19,702 nucleotides of DNA from an uncultured Thermoplasmata archaeon. GTDB taxonomy: Archaea; Thermoplasmatota; Thermoplasmata; Halarchaeoplasmatales; Halarchaeoplasmataceae. Position numbers and translations under genes: made by a program. The DNA is taken from the NCBI GenBank assembly GCA_964399335.1, contig CAYNQI010000020.1:1-19702 (forward strand), read 5' to 3'. Shown in pieces: positions 6,459 to 19,702 of this stretch; within the stretch, counting starts at the first letter, position 1, and the number at the start of each line of letters is the position of its first letter. The notes under the pieces are model-generated. The model saw only the letters and a list, made by a program, of their open reading frames with translations. It was not told the DNA's origin and made no database searches.

Positions 6459-6797
6459 CTCTTCTATAGAAGATTTCATCTCAGTGTACCACTGCTCTAA
6501 ACATTCCTCAGCCTCTTCTCTTATTTTATCCATAGGTCTAGCAGAGTAAAGGAAATAGTAACCACCGTTCCTAATGGTATGTTTTTCCTTATAAACTAAC
6601 CCACAATTCACAAGATTTTCCAAGGATCGGTACACGGTACTCTGATCCCTATCCAACTCTTCCCCTAATTCCTTGGATTTGAACTCTCCACCATCGTTCA
6701 AGATCTTCAACACTTTTTTATCGAGTTTGGAAAGATCGAACAAACACTCCAAAACGTTCTCGCAGTCCACATCGCTAACTGAGAAATCAGGCTTCAT
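6453..6797 (-). CDS. Winged-HTH transcriptional regulator, TrmB-like/COG3355-like
   Basis: ELGEELDRDQSTVYRSLENLV helix-turn-helix and wing GGYYFLY. Four Cys (12, 18, 65, 99). Confidence 0.8.
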   Translation of the reverse strand: MKPDFSVSDVDCENVLECLFDLSKLDKKVLKILNDGGEFKSKELGEELDRDQSTVYRSLENLVNCGLVYKEKHTIRNGGYYFLYSARPMDKIREEAEECLEQWYTEMKSSIEEL

Positions 6798-6876
6798 CTA
6801 TCAACGGTTATGTATCCGTAATACTTAACCATTTCCAAAGGAAACTTATATTACGTATTTTAGAAATACACTATCC

Positions 6877-7335
6877 ATGGGAGACGAGAACGAGGAATTG
6901 AAAGAGGAGATCGAGTCCCTGAAAGACCAGGTCAACACAATGCAGGGTATGCTGGAGAATCTGATGAATATGCATAAGAACGTTCTAAAAAAGGTCTCCA
7001 TGGATTCAGATATTGAAAAACGTTACCTCAAGATGCTCTCCCTATACAAGCACTACGGAAAGATATCTCCATCGGTTTTACCAGGTATAGAAGACTCCAT
7101 CTCTGAAAATATAGTCGAGATCCTTTTAGATGCTAAGAGTGCTAACATCACTCAGATAACTGAAAGATTACGTCATAGAAAGGGTTCTGCCTCACGACAC
7201 ACTGTAAGGGACAGACTAAAGAAGCTTGAAAGCAAAGGGATAGTCAAGAATGAAGAGACCGGGAAAGGTAAAACATACGTTTTAACTGACAAAACCATCA
7301 ACAAGTGGGCAGAATTGCTCGGTATTAAGAAATAG
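6877..7335 (+). CDS. N-terminal coiled coil + C-terminal winged-HTH putative transcriptional regulator
   Basis: Heptad-rich N-terminus, then NITQITERL..ASRHTVRDRLKKLESKGIV..GKGKTYVLT wHTH. TATA-like AACTTATATT at 6843-6852. Confidence 0.7.
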   Translation: MGDENEELKEEIESLKDQVNTMQGMLENLMNMHKNVLKKVSMDSDIEKRYLKMLSLYKHYGKISPSVLPGIEDSISENIVEILLDAKSANITQITERLRHRKGSASRHTVRDRLKKLESKGIVKNEETGKGKTYVLTDKTINKWAELLGIKK

Positions 7336-7370
7336 TTTAGTCACTCTTATAGTATAACAGGTGAAAAAAA

Positions 7371-7727
7371 ATGAGCGTATCAGATATGGATGATATAAAG
7401 GAACTGAAAGAAGTGATGGAAACCCTGAACCAAACTGTACCACCTCTTATCTCTGGTATAGTTGAAGCGGTTTACAACGCTGAGAACAGCAAAGAATTAG
7501 CAAAGAACACTGCAAACTTCTACAAAGAACTGGTCGATGCCGGGATGGAAAAGGACCAGGCTTACCAGCTAACCAGGGATTTCATGAAGGGAAGAGACGT
7601 TGCTAGTCTAGTGAGAGAAGCATTGGGAAGCTCCGGTTTGATGAAAGGTGGAGAGTTCAACGAAGATATCGGTGAAGACATAAAGAAGAAGATCGAAAAG
7701 AAGATGGAAGAGAAGGAGTGGGAGTAG
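7371..7727 (+). CDS. Hypothetical helical protein (archaeal-type, FYKELVDAGMEKDQAYQLT motif)
   Basis: 118-aa ORF with GGTGA RBS. Its stop directly abuts the next ATG. Confidence 0.75.
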   Translation: MSVSDMDDIKELKEVMETLNQTVPPLISGIVEAVYNAENSKELAKNTANFYKELVDAGMEKDQAYQLTRDFMKGRDVASLVREALGSSGLMKGGEFNEDIGEDIKKKIEKKMEEKEWE

Positions 7728-11275: not shown

Positions 11276-11347
11276 ATGGTTTTGAAATTTCCTACAATTC
11301 ATTTACCGCTTTCTCAAAAAGCACGGGTTGGGTGAAATAATCTGATT

Positions 11348-11393
11348 TAGTTTCATCCGAAACTATTATATAAGATAGTTTCATGCGAAACTA
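11348..11393 (+). promoter_or_regulatory. MATE 2 promoter: TATA box flanked by two palindromic operators (candidate MarR sites)
   Basis: TAGTTTC-atcc-GAAACTA (11348-11365), TTATATAA (11366-11373), TAGTTTC-atgc-GAAACTA (11376-11393), ATG at 11400. Confidence 0.8.
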
Positions 11394-13667: not shown

Positions 13668-14825
13668 TTGCATCTGACTAAAGAAGAAGAAGACATCTTA
13701 GAGGGTGAACACGGACCCGGACCGGAAAAAGCTATGAAATTACTGTTAGCTATAGGTAAGATATACGATGCGGAAAAGCTCATACCTATCGAATCAGCAC
13801 AGGTGGCTGGAGTTTCATACAAGACCATGGGAGACGCAGGCTTAGAATTTGTAAAAGATTTCTCGAATAAGGCTGAAGTGAAAGTTCGAACGTTGATGAA
13901 CCCAGCCGGGATGGATCTAGACCGAAAGGGTATAGAGAGTAAAGAATTTAGAGAAAAACAATTACAACTAGTAGAAGCTTACAGAAAGATGGGTATCGAA
14001 CCGTCCTGTACCTGCACTCCGTACCTGGCAGGGAACAGACCGAAAAAAGACACTCACTTAGCATGGAGTGAGAGCTCAGCTGTTTCATTCGCAAATTCAG
14101 TTTTAGGAGCTAGAACCAACAGGGAGGGCGGACCTTCTGCACTCATGGCTGCCGTGATCGGTAAAACACCTTACTATGGATTGCACATAAAAGAAAACCG
14201 AGCACCGGAAGTTATTTACGAAGTGCAGGACGAAGTTCCTACAGCCTTACTTGGTTATCTAGTGGGAAGAGATGTAGGTAATAAGATACCCTATTTCAAA
14301 GGTATATCACCTTCTGAGGATGAATTAAAAACTCTTGGTGCTGCCATGGCTGCAACTGGAGCAGTCGCCCTTTATCACGTTGAATCCATCACTCCGGAAT
14401 ACGATGACTTCTCAACCGAAGACCTGGAAAAAGTACCGGTCACAATGGAGGATATAAACGAAGTTAAGATGGAACTGACACAAAATAACGATCCGGACGT
14501 CATAGTCCTAGGATGTCCTCACTTATCTTCTGAAGAATTAACACATATTGCTAGTTTACTTGAAAACAAACATATCAAAGAAGGACCAGATCTTTTAGTT
14601 TATACAAGCAGGAAGGTCAAGGAACAGAACCCATCTTCAGTCAAGACCATTCAGAACTTTGGTGGTAAAGTCATCACCGATACCTGTATGGTGGTCAGTC
14701 CTTTAGAAAACAATTACAGCACCGCTGCCACCAACTCTGGTAAAGCAGCTGCATATCTACCTAAGCTTGCCAACCAAAAAGTGATCTACGCCGATCTTGA
14801 AACACTCATGGAGATGATATCATGA
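13668..14825 (+). CDS. Aconitase X catalytic subunit (DUF521); probable mevalonate-5-phosphate dehydratase large subunit
   Basis: SAQVAGVSYKT, CTCTPY, WSESSAVSFANSVLGARTNREGG, GCPH, DTCMVVSP, TNSGKAAAY. The split two-gene AcnX is the known phosphomevalonate dehydratase of the archaeal mevalonate pathway. TTG start. Confidence 0.9.
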   Translation: MHLTKEEEDILEGEHGPGPEKAMKLLLAIGKIYDAEKLIPIESAQVAGVSYKTMGDAGLEFVKDFSNKAEVKVRTLMNPAGMDLDRKGIESKEFREKQLQLVEAYRKMGIEPSCTCTPYLAGNRPKKDTHLAWSESSAVSFANSVLGARTNREGGPSALMAAVIGKTPYYGLHIKENRAPEVIYEVQDEVPTALLGYLVGRDVGNKIPYFKGISPSEDELKTLGAAMAATGAVALYHVESITPEYDDFSTEDLEKVPVTMEDINEVKMELTQNNDPDVIVLGCPHLSSEELTHIASLLENKHIKEGPDLLVYTSRKVKEQNPSSVKTIQNFGGKVITDTCMVVSPLENNYSTAATNSGKAAAYLPKLANQKVIYADLETLMEMIS

Positions 14826-15577
14826 TCTTAGAAGGAAGAGGTGTATCACCTGGGAACACAGAAGGAAAAGTCGTCAAAGTCGACGAACCGGTGTCGTTCC
14901 TGGGAGATGTCGATCCAACCACAGGTATGGTATTTGAAGAGAAGGATATCACGGACTCTATATTCGTTTTTCCTAAAGGTAAGGGCAGCACCGTTGGTTC
15001 TTATGTTATCTACCAGTTAAAAAAGAACAAACATGCCCCAAAAGCCATAGTTAACCAGGAAACTGAAACCATAGTCGCTACAGGAGCTATAATATCAGAT
15101 ATCCCACTGATAGATAAGGTAGATATCGAACTTCTAGAAGATGGGGACGAAGTTACCATAGACGGGTCAACTGGTAAATTAGAACTTCATGATATAAAAC
15201 CTACTCCCGTCGTTACCTGCTTCATCGAAAAAGATGATAAACTATTGATAGTGAAACGAAGCGATGAAGTAGGCAGCTTTCAGGGAAGATGGTCAGGAAT
15301 TTCAGGTTACCTGGAAGATAAAGATCCCTTAGAACAGGCAAAAAGAGAGATAACTCAAGAAACAAAGTTAGATGTGGAATTTATCAGAAAAGGTAATATA
15401 GTTTTAGCAAGAGGTGAAGACAATATCTGGGAAGTTCACCCTTTCCTGTTCCGAACCGAAGAAGAACCAGTTTTGGACTGGGAGAACTCAGAATACAGAT
15501 GGGTAACTAAAGAAGAGCTAAAAGAACTGAAAACCGTTCCTAAACTTTTAGAAGGATATGAAGAGGTGAAAAGATGA
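14822..15577 (+). CDS. Aconitase X swivel subunit (DUF126) fused to a C-terminal Nudix hydrolase domain
   Basis: Residues 1-~123: SFLGDVDPTTG, FPKGKGSTVGSYVIY, ETIVATGAIISDIP, VTIDGSTG. Residues ~127-251: VVTCFI...LLIVKRS..VGSFQGRWSGISGYLE...AKREITQETKL...VHPFLF...LDWENSEYRW. Confidence 0.88.
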   Translation: MILEGRGVSPGNTEGKVVKVDEPVSFLGDVDPTTGMVFEEKDITDSIFVFPKGKGSTVGSYVIYQLKKNKHAPKAIVNQETETIVATGAIISDIPLIDKVDIELLEDGDEVTIDGSTGKLELHDIKPTPVVTCFIEKDDKLLIVKRSDEVGSFQGRWSGISGYLEDKDPLEQAKREITQETKLDVEFIRKGNIVLARGEDNIWEVHPFLFRTEEEPVLDWENSEYRWVTKEELKELKTVPKLLEGYEEVKR

Positions 15578-16570: not shown

Positions 16571-16586
16571 AAAAACTATTTATCTT
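16571..16586 (+). promoter_or_regulatory. Putative BRE/TATA for the Cas4-like gene (likely leaderless transcript)
   Basis: AAAAACTA-TTTATCTT, ending about 24 nt before ATG 16610. Confidence 0.35.
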
Positions 16587-16609
16587 AATCCATGTAATAT
16601 AAAAATGTT

Positions 16610-17602
16610 ATGGGAGAACCTTGGATATCAGCCAGTGATGTTGAAAAATATGGATACTGCCCTCTTAGTTGGTGGTTGAATGAGTCTGAGAAGGAAGTGA
16701 TCAACGAGAGTCTTAAAGAAGGTAGAGAGGAACATAAAAAGATCACCGGTGAAATAGATCAAGTGAAAGAAAAAGAAGAAGCAACCAAAAAGTTCGAAAA
16801 TCTTATACTTTGGTTGGCAATTTCTGCAACATTACTTTCTATCGCTGGACTCTCTTTGATAAGACCTGAAAGGATATTCAGCCAGATATTTCAGGTAAAT
16901 GCACTGATCTGGCTTCTAGCAGCAACTTTTTTTCTGTTTATGAGTGAGAAAGGTTTGATCAAGGAAGAGGAGTTCAAGACAGAGCGTGTTATACTTATCT
17001 TTGCCATGGTAGCTACAGGTCTTGGGATTTTAAGTTTGACTCTTCCATTACTAGATGATTATCTAGCCCGTATCACACAGATCATATCACTGGTATGGTT
17101 GATCGGTGCTAGTTATTGGCTGAAACGTTCACTATCTCTGGGTAGAGAGGTCAAGTTAAAAAAAGAAAAACTCAAAATGCCTGATGGTGAAGTAGATTAC
17201 GTAGACATATACGAAGAAGATAGTAAGCTATTCTCATCCGATAAATATAGATTGAGAGGCAGACCAGATTATATCGTTAAGGAAGACAACGTCAAAATTC
17301 CTGTGGAGATCAAAACTGGACGTGTTCCTAAAGGCCCATTCTTTTCACATATACTTCAAACCGCTGCATACTGTCTTTTGTTAGAGGAAGAAACAGGCAA
17401 GTCACCACCATACGGGATCGTCAAGTATGGAGATAAAGAATTTGAAGTCGAGTATGATAATGAATTGAAAGACTTACTGCTGGAGAAATTGGACGATATG
17501 AGAGAGATATTTCAAACTGAAGATGTCCATAGGAACCATAATAGAAAAGGTAAATGTAGAAATTGTTCCAGGCGTGAGATATGTCCGGAATCTTTAGCTT
17601 AA
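16610..17602 (+). CDS. Stand-alone Cas4-like PD-(D/E)xK nuclease with four inserted transmembrane helices
   Basis: SASDVEKYGYC17P; G38xxxH42; GRPD220; E233-I-K235; Q250xxxY254; C316xxC319xxxxxC325 (1+3 Cys Fe-S arrangement of Cas4). Hydrophobic block at residues ~63-171. No other cas gene or array in the window. Confidence 0.88.
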   Translation: MGEPWISASDVEKYGYCPLSWWLNESEKEVINESLKEGREEHKKITGEIDQVKEKEEATKKFENLILWLAISATLLSIAGLSLIRPERIFSQIFQVNALIWLLAATFFLFMSEKGLIKEEEFKTERVILIFAMVATGLGILSLTLPLLDDYLARITQIISLVWLIGASYWLKRSLSLGREVKLKKEKLKMPDGEVDYVDIYEEDSKLFSSDKYRLRGRPDYIVKEDNVKIPVEIKTGRVPKGPFFSHILQTAAYCLLLEEETGKSPPYGIVKYGDKEFEVEYDNELKDLLLEKLDDMREIFQTEDVHRNHNRKGKCRNCSRREICPESLA

Positions 17603-17892
17603 TCCTCTAATTTCCTTTTGATCTCTTCAACATCTTCTTTCATCTTAAGCATCTCTTCTTCAAAGGTTGTAAATTGTCTAGTCGAAAAGATCCTATGGGA
17701 AATGTACATTCCAAAGAATACCGCTCCGATTATAGCCAAAATAGATATCACGACTAAACCGAATACAAAAGTGTAAAAACCCGTCAACACGTCCCTCATA
17801 GGTAGAATACCGGTCATCATAGCTACTGCTACTAATCCCACCCCGACTATGATAGAGCCCAAAAGTATCAACGATACAGGTATCTTTTTCAT
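17599..17892 (-). CDS. Small hypothetical membrane protein (2 TM + C-terminal coiled coil)
   Basis: 97 aa, two hydrophobic segments, then FEEEMLKMKEDVEEIKRKLED. ATGA overlap with the upstream lipoprotein gene. Confidence 0.75.
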   Translation of the reverse strand: MKKIPVSLILLGSIIVGVGLVAVAMMTGILPMRDVLTGFYTFVFGLVVISILAIIGAVFFGMYISHRIFSTRQFTTFEEEMLKMKEDVEEIKRKLED

Positions 17893-18719: not shown

Positions 18720-18747
18720 TAATATGATAAGGTTGGATGGTGGTTAT

Positions 18748-19702
18748 ATGGGTAAACAAACAGTTCGTATATTAGGAAAATATCATCTTAATGGGGCGAA
18801 TGTTCACGCTCTTTTTCCAGTAGTAGAGGTAACTCTAGATATTGGAAATCTAAAAAAAAACTTTTTCGACACAGGATCCAAAAAGATATTAATTAAACTC
18901 TTACCTGATTTTAAAACACACCTAGATGACAATGAAGATATTTTGAAAGAACATAATACATCTCCTTCACATATCATACAATACTTGGTTATAGCTGTAC
19001 AAGATATGGCTGGTGACGAAGTATCATTTGGACAAATTATCAGAGATTCTGAAACAACATCGAAATTAGTAATAGAATATCATCATGAGGAACTCGTTGA
19101 CTATGCCGTAGAAAAAGCGGTAGAGCTTTACAACAAGATAATCGAAGGAGAAAAGGAATTAGAGGGATATGTTAACAGTATAATTAAAAAGGCCCAAAAT
19201 ATCTACTATATGAAAAAAATTGGACCTAGTACAAAATCTATTTTAGATGCTGCCAAAAAACATGATATCCCATTTAGACATATACAGAAAGATTACAGCC
19301 TTTATTCTCTAGGGTGGGGTGTTAAAAAGAAGCGTATATGGGGACCGGTCACATCTGAAACATCTATGATATCCTCGGATGTTGCTCAGAACAAGCTTTT
19401 GACTAAAAAGATCCTTTATGAAACCGGTTTTCCAGTTCCTAGTGGTGAGATAGTTACTTCCGAGGAAGAAGCTGTGCAAAGCGCAGAAAGATTATCGTAC
19501 CCGGTCATAATAAAACCTGTAGATGGTCACCACGGAGAGGGTGTATTAGGTGACATTGTATCTAAAGAAGAGGCAAAAGAAGCATTTGAAATAGCAAAGG
19601 AATACTCGAATAAATTGCTTTTGGAAGAGCACATCCCAGGTGATGATTTCAGGTTCTTAGTCGTAGATAATGAAGTTAAGGCAGTGGCTAAAAGAATACC
19701 AG
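18748..19702 (+). CDS. cphA: Cyanophycin synthetase-like protein (CphA N domain + ATP-grasp domain), 3'-truncated by the window edge
   Basis: Manual translation, open for 318 codons to the window end: ..HLNGANVH..VEVTLDIG..HIIQYLVIAVQDMAG..VSFG..VIEY..IGPSTKSILDAAKKHDIP..SLGWG..KRI..NKLLTKKIL..GFPVPSG..YPVIIKPVDGHHGEGV..LLEEHIPGDDFRFLVVDNEVKAVAKRIP. An in-frame ATG also exists at 18724; 18748 follows GGTGGT. Confidence 0.8.
   Translation, partial: MGKQTVRILGKYHLNGANVHALFPVVEVTLDIGNLKKNFFDTGSKKILIKLLPDFKTHLDDNEDILKEHNTSPSHIIQYLVIAVQDMAGDEVSFGQIIRDSETTSKLVIEYHHEELVDYAVEKAVELYNKIIEGEKELEGYVNSIIKKAQNIYYMKKIGPSTKSILDAAKKHDIPFRHIQKDYSLYSLGWGVKKKRIWGPVTSETSMISSDVAQNKLLTKKILYETGFPVPSGEIVTSEEEAVQSAERLSYPVIIKPVDGHHGEGVLGDIVSKEEAKEAFEIAKEYSNKLLLEEHIPGDDFRFLVVDNEVKAVAKRIP

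Follow-up and report, generated by a model that had tools for sequence, protein, structure and literature searches.

A CRISPR-independent Cas4-family nuclease predicted to be threaded through the cytoplasmic membrane of Thermoplasmatota archaea

The locus and its nuclease gene

The stretch of DNA analysed here, called the window, is the 19,702 nucleotides of contig CAYNQI010000020.1 from an uncultured Thermoplasmata archaeon (assembly GCA_964399335.1). Its subject is a complete open reading frame (ORF) on the forward strand (16610..17602), which encodes, without interruption, 330 amino acids plus a stop codon. Enzymes of the Cas4 family are regarded as soluble, acting in CRISPR adaptation or as "solo" nucleases without an assigned role. 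The product of the ORF passes the curated cut-off of TIGR00372 (cas4; 94.7 bits versus 65) and the cut-offs of PF01930 (47.0 bits versus 22.7) and PF12705 (51.6 bits versus 22), and at 330 residues it is not of the usual Cas4 build, which is compact, soluble, single-domain and about 160-220 residues long.

The original prediction, made by a model from the nucleotide sequence, held that all Cas4 hallmarks are intact, and every motif it had listed is present: YGYC17PLSWWL, G38xxxH42, G217-R-P-D220, E233-I-K235, Q250xxxY254 and C316xxC319xxxxxC325. The N-terminal nuclease segment (residues 1-55; 16610..16774, like all parts of the gene on the + strand) carries Cys17 (16658-16660), the predicted first ligand of an iron-sulphur (Fe-S) cluster, and the G38xxxH42 metal-ligand motif (H42 codon, 16733-16735), which lies on the first stalk helix. 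The PD-(D/E)XK (RecB-like) nuclease core (residues 190-330; 17177..17599), in which the Pfam stretch covers residues 190-326, contains the codons of D220 (17267-17269), E233 (17306-17308), K235 (17312-17314) and Q250...Y254 (17357-17371), so that with H42 the RecB-like catalytic set is complete. The C-terminal ligand triad, C316-x2-C319-x5-C325, is encoded at 17555..17584. In an alignment of 66 homologs sharing 45-89% identity, C17, G38, H42, D220, K235, Q250, C316, C319 and C325 are invariant, as are W21 and W22 of the N-terminal segment, and E233 and Y254 are conserved at 90% or above. The one N-terminal and three C-terminal cysteines reproduce the [4Fe-4S] ligand pattern of Cas4, and cluster binding is predicted.

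Structure prediction, which had been proposed as a check, also returned a Cas4-like fold. The AlphaFold2 (AF2) model, built on the 66-sequence alignment, has a predicted local distance difference test score (pLDDT) of 78.1 and a predicted template-modelling score of 0.69. Its alpha/beta core is confident (residues 194-303, block pLDDT about 85-96). Cas4 chains head the Foldseek comparison with the Protein Data Bank (PDB; best 8D3Q_J, E 1.9e-5, also 8D3L, then 4IC1 and 7MI4), followed at lower rank by Dna2, MGME1, ACE1, AdnAB and EXO5 (including 5EAN, 6PPU and 7LW8), and profile searches of the PDB likewise match 4IC1 (1.4e-5) and 8D3L (2.4e-5).

A duplicated hairpin within the nuclease fold

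Four hydrophobic segments lie between H42 and D220, at about residues 63-85, 92-112, 124-149 and 152-173, with 19-residue Kyte-Doolittle peaks of 2.0-2.4 for the first three predicted transmembrane (TM) helices and about 1.2 for TM4. The AF2 model has helices at 33-84, 88-113, 121-147 and 150-187, of which the first runs continuously from the nuclease domain into TM1 and the last continuously out of TM4, so that the domain would stand on two stalks. Alignment with 8D3L places residues 4-51 of the protein on chain residues 6-54 and residues 229-330 on 102-202; the gap between chain residues 54 and 102 implies a net insertion of about 130 residues, made up of two stalk segments and four TM helices. 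The insert had been described as about 110 hydrophobic residues forming four helices between the Cys/His motif and the core. The helices and their position stand, but by the 8D3L alignment the size is about 130.

In the insert, one two-helix hairpin is duplicated in tandem. Repeat 1 (residues 56-118; 16775..16963) contains TM1 (about 63-85) and TM2 (about 92-112), joined by a short outside loop, as judged from hydropathy, the AF2 helices and hhalign, and repeat 2 (residues 119-181; 16964..17152) contains TM3 (about 124-149) and TM4 (about 152-173), with a K/R-rich loop before it and a tail after it that are predicted to be cytoplasmic. Profile-profile comparison of the two repeats by hhalign aligned 58 columns without gaps (probability 99.3%, E 2.6e-20, score 92.3), while 30 column-shuffled controls reached a maximum score of 15.7. 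The invariant or near-invariant W163, L164 and A167 of repeat 2 mirror W101, L103 and A104 of repeat 1. A search with residues 56-185 in a collection of 5.8 billion proteins gave 52 matches, all of them Cas4-domain proteins, and thus no occurrence of the hairpin module outside Cas4; a feature search of the ESM Atlas had a best match of 0.77, which is a lead only.

Across the 66 homologs the mean number of lysines and arginines is 4.2 before TM1, 0.9 in loop 1-2, 3.2 in loop 2-3, 0.7 in loop 3-4 and 4.8 after TM4. This distribution is the positive-inside pattern and points to a topology with both termini inside. Hydropathy and the positive-inside rule, together with the even TM numbers and the split forms described below, lead to the prediction of a cytoplasmic, membrane-anchored nuclease domain, and the expectation that both nuclease halves are cytoplasmic gains support from the charges, the even helix numbers and the position of the split inside a hairpin.

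Two, four or eight helices

Searches of genomes and protein representatives recovered the same nuclease with a varying number of hairpins at one insertion site. The 2-TM form has about 255-318 residues (for example in Poseidoniia), the 4-TM form about 320-480, including WP_015283263.1 of the cultured Aciduliprofundum sp. MAR08-339, and the 8-TM form about 470-600. The TM counter used agreed with hand counts for 8 of 10 whole proteins; its misses were one extra call within the nuclease core and one weakly hydrophobic helix, and it was then run on the insert region only. Among 214 complete one-piece proteins, 38 fell in the 2-TM class, 134 in the 4-TM class and 21 in the 8-TM class. Fifteen apparent "3 TM" calls are homologs of the same length as the 4-TM form, and three other outliers were judged by eye to have 4, 8 and 2 TM helices, which leaves no true odd helix number and no 6-TM class among the 214. 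With these calls resolved, the totals are 39 proteins with 2 TM helices, about 150 with 4 and 22 with 8. The even numbers fit successive doublings together with a constraint that keeps both nuclease halves on one side of the membrane. On the tree of the nuclease core the hairpin-number classes are intermixed, in a backbone that is weakly supported and for which the bootstrap did not converge.

A gene split within the hairpin

At four divergent loci (L010, L094, L095 and L096) the gene is naturally split within the hairpin. An upstream gene of 83-94 codons, specifying the Cys/WW/GxxxH segment and one TM helix, is directly followed by a gene of 172-181 codons specifying one TM helix and the core. 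In L010, from Thermoplasmatota family f21, the 87-residue Cys/GxxxH ORF with its single TM helix overlaps the 177-residue ORF by ATGA. The pairs in L094 (83 then 181 residues) and L095 (87 then 178 residues) come from unrelated metagenomic contigs, and that in L096 (94 then 172 residues) from a 128-kb contig with a protein named by NCBI from an Anaerolineaceae metagenome-assembled genome. Relatives of the C-terminal half carry names from Chloroflexota, Anaerolineaceae and Thermoflexales.

P0303, the small protein, aligns with Cas4 models over their N-terminal 45 positions, and its prediction as a complex with P0290 scored 0.92, 0.92 and 0.83 in separate runs. Of three controls, the best scored 0.00. 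The mark set for this score is reached by 58 of 80 solved complexes and by 2 of 110 mismatched pairs; the soluble part of the pair resembles solved Cas4, and that share of the pass may therefore stem from likeness. The runs share at least 92% of their contacts, with a partner pLDDT of at least 73. In the models the interface contains both TM helices (residues 3-25 of chain 1 and 62-90 of chain 2), and Cys30 of the small protein is placed against residues 148-167 of the large one, which hold H152, C158, C161 and C167. We know of no solved precedent for the TM-TM part of this interface.

Two further arrangements may be noted. In L099 (Thermoflexales) a C-terminal half, P0302 (one TM helix plus core; 7001-7522, +), is preceded by a 150-residue acidic protein (6539-6991, +) that has a C-terminal TM helix and lacks the Cys/WW/GxxxH motif. 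In the Anaerolineaceae locus (L096:7589-10714, +) nadK, a gene for 175 residues and a RecN-like SMC_N gene come after the split pair on the same strand.

Independence from CRISPR

The window contains no cas1, cas2 or other cas gene and no repeat array. In its genome, 80% complete at 1.57 Mb in 212 contigs, no Cas1 match was found, and the Cas4-like gene is the sole PF01930 match. Of 301 sampled Thermoplasmatota genomes, 73 have Cas1. In a table of carriers and Cas1 drawn up by hand, from which 8 low-scoring family matches and 3 Cas1 matches below cut-off had been removed, Cas1 occurs in about 32 of 199 carrier genomes (16%), so that some 84% of carriers are without detectable Cas1. The low-scoring matches in family f5 are true CRISPR Cas4 proteins, adjoining or fused to Cas1. 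More than 80 neighbourhoods of the membrane Cas4 contain no cas gene.

The two kinds of Cas4 also separate by sequence. A profile of the nuclease core gives at least 103 bits on every tested 2-, 4- or 8-TM and split member versus 2-35 bits when run on the phylum's CRISPR-linked Cas4. In the maximum-likelihood tree of the core the membrane and split forms all fall on one side of a branch with 99/97 support. CRISPR-bearing genomes have a separate soluble Cas4 that adjoins or is fused to Cas1. The family is not a CRISPR component. The absence of a CRISPR context, which the original prediction had asserted for the window, thus extends to the 80%-complete genome and to most carriers.

Distribution and inheritance

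With a carrier threshold of E<=1e-20 for the family profile, matches were found in 207 of the 301 sampled genomes and in 99 of 138 genera, mostly one per genome. A homolog search with analysis of neighbourhoods had been proposed, and it showed the architecture of Cas4 with a TM insert to be phylum-wide and without cas neighbours. Some families are without the membrane form: f2 has one carrier among 36 genomes, and f5 has only CRISPR-type Cas4.

The same set of six genes is retained in 21 to 24 loci, where the median identity to the window's copy is 58% for the membrane Cas4, compared with 70% for the AcnX large subunit, 70% for the IF-2B-family protein, 58% for the AcnX-small/Nudix protein and 33% for an adjacent 153-residue protein. 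To judge from these identities, the membrane Cas4 behaves as a vertically inherited gene under purifying selection. A phylum-wide, single-copy and slowly evolving gene fits a core function better than it fits a typical mobile defence gene.

Gene neighbourhoods

The other genes of the window encode a NosD-like protein, two MATE pumps, an M50 protease, a methyltransferase, a receiver-hemerythrin protein, a MarR protein, the large and small subunits of AcnX, an IF-2B-family protein and a cyanophycin-synthetase-like protein, which makes the region one of housekeeping and transport. The spacer between the IF-2B stop codon and the Cas4-like ORF is 46 bp and holds an A/T-rich stretch, AAAAACTATTTATCTTAAT (16571..16589, +), that reads as a TFB-recognition element (BRE) and TATA-like sequence about 25-35 nucleotides 5' of the ATG. 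It is plausibly the gene's own promoter, and would give a leaderless or short-leader mRNA. A sigma-70 promoter scan found fewer sites than in shuffled sequence; the sigma-70 model does not apply to archaea.

Synteny across 84 loci is lineage-specific: AcnX-AcnX/Nudix-IF-2B; FBPase-TIM-PLD/LTD/PKD; TPD with GlmS/GlmU; Nop56-IF-2B with an Rce1-like gene; and MetRS/gyrase. A conserved partner gene is thereby ruled out. Genes related to DNA do occur nearby, among them a TPD/CDIN1-like nuclease gene upstream in about 15 loci, ExoVII, CinA and ComEA-like genes in Thermoflexales, the PLD/lamin-tail/PKD genes and nadK-recN; each is confined to a single lineage, and they are hints only. Complementarity with NurA was likewise ruled out (37 of 199 carriers versus 26 of 102 non-carriers). 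PADLOC returned only Cas4 and DruK nuclease-domain matches for the protein and none for its neighbours, and PHROGs gave generic exonuclease families only. In the metagenome listing the stretch is present only in DNA from soda lakes and salt lakes.

Several neighbouring features may be recorded in their own right. Converging on the Cas4-like gene, with a 4-nucleotide overlap of the 3' ends, is a gene (17599-17892, -) for a 97-residue protein that has a charged coiled-coil tail besides two TM helices. It matches nothing in Pfam or PADLOC. The haloalkaliphilic clade and L066 retain it beside the membrane Cas4, and with a median identity of 57% it is as conserved as Cas4 itself. In one clade (L049, L051, L052, L054, L056, L066 and L079) a co-directional gene for about 870 residues lies directly 5' of the membrane Cas4 (for example L051:3346-5955, +). 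Its product has two PLD-like domains, lamin-tail domains and a PKD domain, and resembles a surface or secreted nuclease or phospholipase; its position could be a functional link or merely inherited gene order. In the window's gene at 14822-15577 (+) a weak Nudix domain is joined to the AcnX small subunit (swivel domain), and this 251-residue fusion is kept in syntenic relatives (L003, L004 and one clade). An open-ended ORF at 18724-19701 (+), in which an N-terminal domain like that of cyanophycin synthase is combined with an ATP-grasp domain (PF18921 1.9e-8, RimK 1.1e-8), would be an archaeal CphA-like gene running past the window's end. Just 5' of the second MATE gene (11400), at 11337-11392 (+), lie two tandem 28-nucleotide copies, 79% identical and each with GTTTCATNCGAAAC, which look like operator sites.

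A nuclease probably held at the membrane and its possible roles

The protein is probably a Cas4-family nuclease that stands alone and is independent of CRISPR, embedded in the cytoplasmic membrane with its active site in the cytoplasm. Fe-S binding, nuclease activity, membrane location and topology are predicted properties, and the substrate and biological role are inferred. The original prediction, at its core an intact Cas4-type Fe-S nuclease with a four-helix insert, both halves cytoplasmic and no CRISPR, held on every test run.

In the proposed mechanism, a PD-(D/E)XK fold would take its [4Fe-4S] site from Cys17 and C316/C319/C325, with the two tandem hairpin copies placed between the N-terminal Cys/His motif and the catalytic core. 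As the helix number is even, both halves of the fold would meet on the cytoplasmic face, and there the Fe-S "staple" and the metal site of D220, E233, K235 and H42 would assemble on the two stalks, whose helices lead into TM1 and out of TM4. Such a tether would hold the active site at most a few nanometres from the membrane, so that it would act only on DNA that reaches the membrane, away from the bulk nucleoid. The activity is expected to be that of a metal-dependent DNA nuclease, like SSO0001 or the Methanosarcina mazei Solo-Cas4.

Several observations count against this picture. TM4 has only moderate hydrophobicity, and the helices are modelled by AF2 with a confidence of 58-77. One protein, P0216 (198 residues, no TM helices, a 43-residue linker), scores 115 bits on the family core and nests within the membrane clade, which indicates that the nuclease can exist without an anchor, though it may be a secondary loss of the hairpin. 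No neighbour is common to the whole family in the 84 loci. In the M. mazei solo-Cas4 the Fe-S cluster is dispensable for cleavage (PMC12501428), so that the "staple" may be structural and not catalytic.

Among biological roles, a constitutive core function at the membrane seems the likeliest, either the degradation or processing of linear DNA that enters or contacts it, or maintenance of the membrane-proximal chromosome. We do not think that the gene is a mobile defence module. No single role is judged likely, and even the best placed falls well short of an even chance. One form, which should be taken as speculative and rather unlikely, is that of a core-gene gatekeeper in Thermoplasmatota (split in Chloroflexota), which would destroy or process DNA ends at the inner membrane face by location and independently of sequence; the number of hairpin copies (1, 2 or 4), or the split into two genes, might then tune assembly or oligomeric state.

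More specific accounts of the role have been weighed against the constitutive function. The protein could be an innate barrier to viruses and plasmids like the bacterial SNIPE, one that distinguishes own from foreign DNA by location, cutting foreign DNA as it crosses the membrane while the tether protects the chromosome. A predicted membrane-held cytoplasmic nuclease matches the logic of SNIPE (PMC13190303), nucleases of the Cas4 family work at DNA ends and are often met in defence and viral settings (PMC5704561), and the PADLOC matches, confined as they are to the Cas4 and DruK nuclease domains, agree with this. The gene, however, is distributed like a core gene, in single copy with housekeeping synteny and no defence island, and unlike most defence genes it has diverged as its metabolic neighbours have; there is no virus-sensing domain, whereas SNIPE has DUF4041, and neither the fold nor the mode of anchoring is related to that of SNIPE. 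A barrier of this kind is possible, and on balance doubtful.

Alternatively, the enzyme may be a housekeeping nuclease of DNA maintenance at the membrane, serving end resection and repair, the clearance of DNA from the division site, or membrane-attached intermediates of replication and segregation. This would account for the vertical, phylum-wide pattern and the slow evolution; the DNA-metabolism neighbours scattered by lineage (TPD/CDIN1-like genes, nadK-recN, the ExoVII/CinA/ComEA-like genes) are in keeping with it, and Dna2, MGME1 and AddB are repair and replication nucleases of the same Fe-S fold. None of those neighbours, though, is conserved family-wide, and they may reflect inherited gene order; NurA shows no complementarity; whole families (f2, f5) go without the gene, so that it is not essential for the phylum; and repair gives no reason for a membrane anchor. 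Maintenance is a tentative proposal, short of likely and about as probable as the barrier against incoming DNA.

It is very improbable that the hydrophobic block is not inserted in the membrane, being a buried oligomerisation core, or that the protein is a non-catalytic scaffold. Soluble Cas4 and solo Cas4 do form large oligomers (a decamer in 4IC1; 318 kDa in M. mazei, PMC12501428), and TM4 is of modest hydrophobicity, but the helices of about 20 residues number 2, 4 or 8, always even, with Kyte-Doolittle values up to 2.4 and positive-inside charges, each half of the split forms keeps exactly one of them, and the invariance of catalytic and cluster residues argues against a dead scaffold. That the protein is a CRISPR adaptation Cas4 acting in trans with a Cas1-Cas2 encoded elsewhere, as its database name suggests, is scarcely credible and already largely refuted, for although it passes the TIGR00372 "equivalog" cut-off and about one carrier in six has Cas1, the window's genome yields no Cas1 match, most carriers have none, the gene is never beside cas genes, and CRISPR genomes keep a soluble Cas4 of their own across the 99/97 branch.

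Comparison with known systems

Solo Cas4 proteins (PF01930/TIGR00372: SSO0001, PDB 4IC1; Pcal_0546, 4R5Q; M. mazei Solo-Cas4, PMC12501428; phylogenomics in PMC5704561) share with the membrane form the fold, the RecB-like motifs, the Fe-S site of one plus three cysteines and a location away from cas operons. They are soluble and about 160-220 residues long, whereas the membrane form has about 130 residues inserted, comprising two TM hairpins and stalks, and forms its own clade. The Cas4 proteins of CRISPR adaptation (type I-C, 8D3L/8D3Q; the Cas4-Cas1 fusion, 7MI4) are the best structural matches to the nuclease core. The membrane family differs from them in having no linkage to Cas1, Cas2 or an array, and the genuine CRISPR Cas4 of the phylum is a distinct paralog that scores weakly. 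AddB, AdnAB, Dna2, EXO5 and MGME1 belong to the same superfamily, with an N-terminal cysteine and a C-terminal cysteine triad closing the domain; they are soluble repair and replication enzymes, usually fused to a helicase, and none has membrane helices in the stapled loop.

The original prediction allowed that the subfamily might already be catalogued. In one sense it is, since its members are abundant in databases under automatic names ("CRISPR-associated protein Cas4", "Dna2/Cas4 domain-containing", "PD-(D/E)XK nuclease family protein", "hypothetical"), but no paper on the membrane architecture was found: full-text literature searches gave no published description of a transmembrane Cas4, the word "transmembrane" is absent from the Cas4 phylogenomics paper (PMC5704561), and the one occurrence of "Cas4" in the Kiwa preprint led to nothing relevant. 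The "novel Cas4 clade" of JCVI-syn3.0 (PMC13621843) is a different, soluble protein fused to a DEDD domain. The names point to a systematic annotation error, with hundreds of genes labelled "CRISPR-associated protein Cas4" in genomes without detectable Cas1.

A whole archaeal phylum, one that includes the abundant marine Poseidoniia and the cultured Aciduliprofundum, thus appears to keep a version of Cas4 with its fold threaded through the membrane. If the predicted architecture is correct, it would be a rare natural case of a soluble enzyme fold interrupted by a TM hairpin and even split within it, with an Fe-S cluster ligated by two polypeptides in the split form, and the biology of solo Cas4 would gain a concrete setting in DNA transactions at the membrane.

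A functional parallel is SNIPE, a GIY-YIG nuclease bound to the membrane, which cuts phage DNA while it is being injected (PMC13190303). Removal of its TM helix makes the nuclease toxic, and experiments show that sequestration at the membrane can both protect the chromosome and aim the nuclease at entering DNA (PMC13190303). SNIPE is thus a tested precedent for the use of a tether in spatial self/non-self discrimination and in avoiding autoimmunity. SNIPE combines a GIY-YIG domain with DUF4041, has a single N-terminal TM helix and shows the patchy distribution of a defence system; in the membrane Cas4, Pfam finds only PD-(D/E)XK/Cas4, and the distribution is core-like and not patchy or defence-island-like. 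The membrane Cas4 is accordingly an analogue and not a relative, and the resemblance is one of functional logic only, that of a cytoplasmic nuclease held at the inner membrane face, an arrangement which for the membrane Cas4 is a prediction. If the prediction is true, it may extend location-based nuclease control of the SNIPE type to archaea through an unrelated fold.

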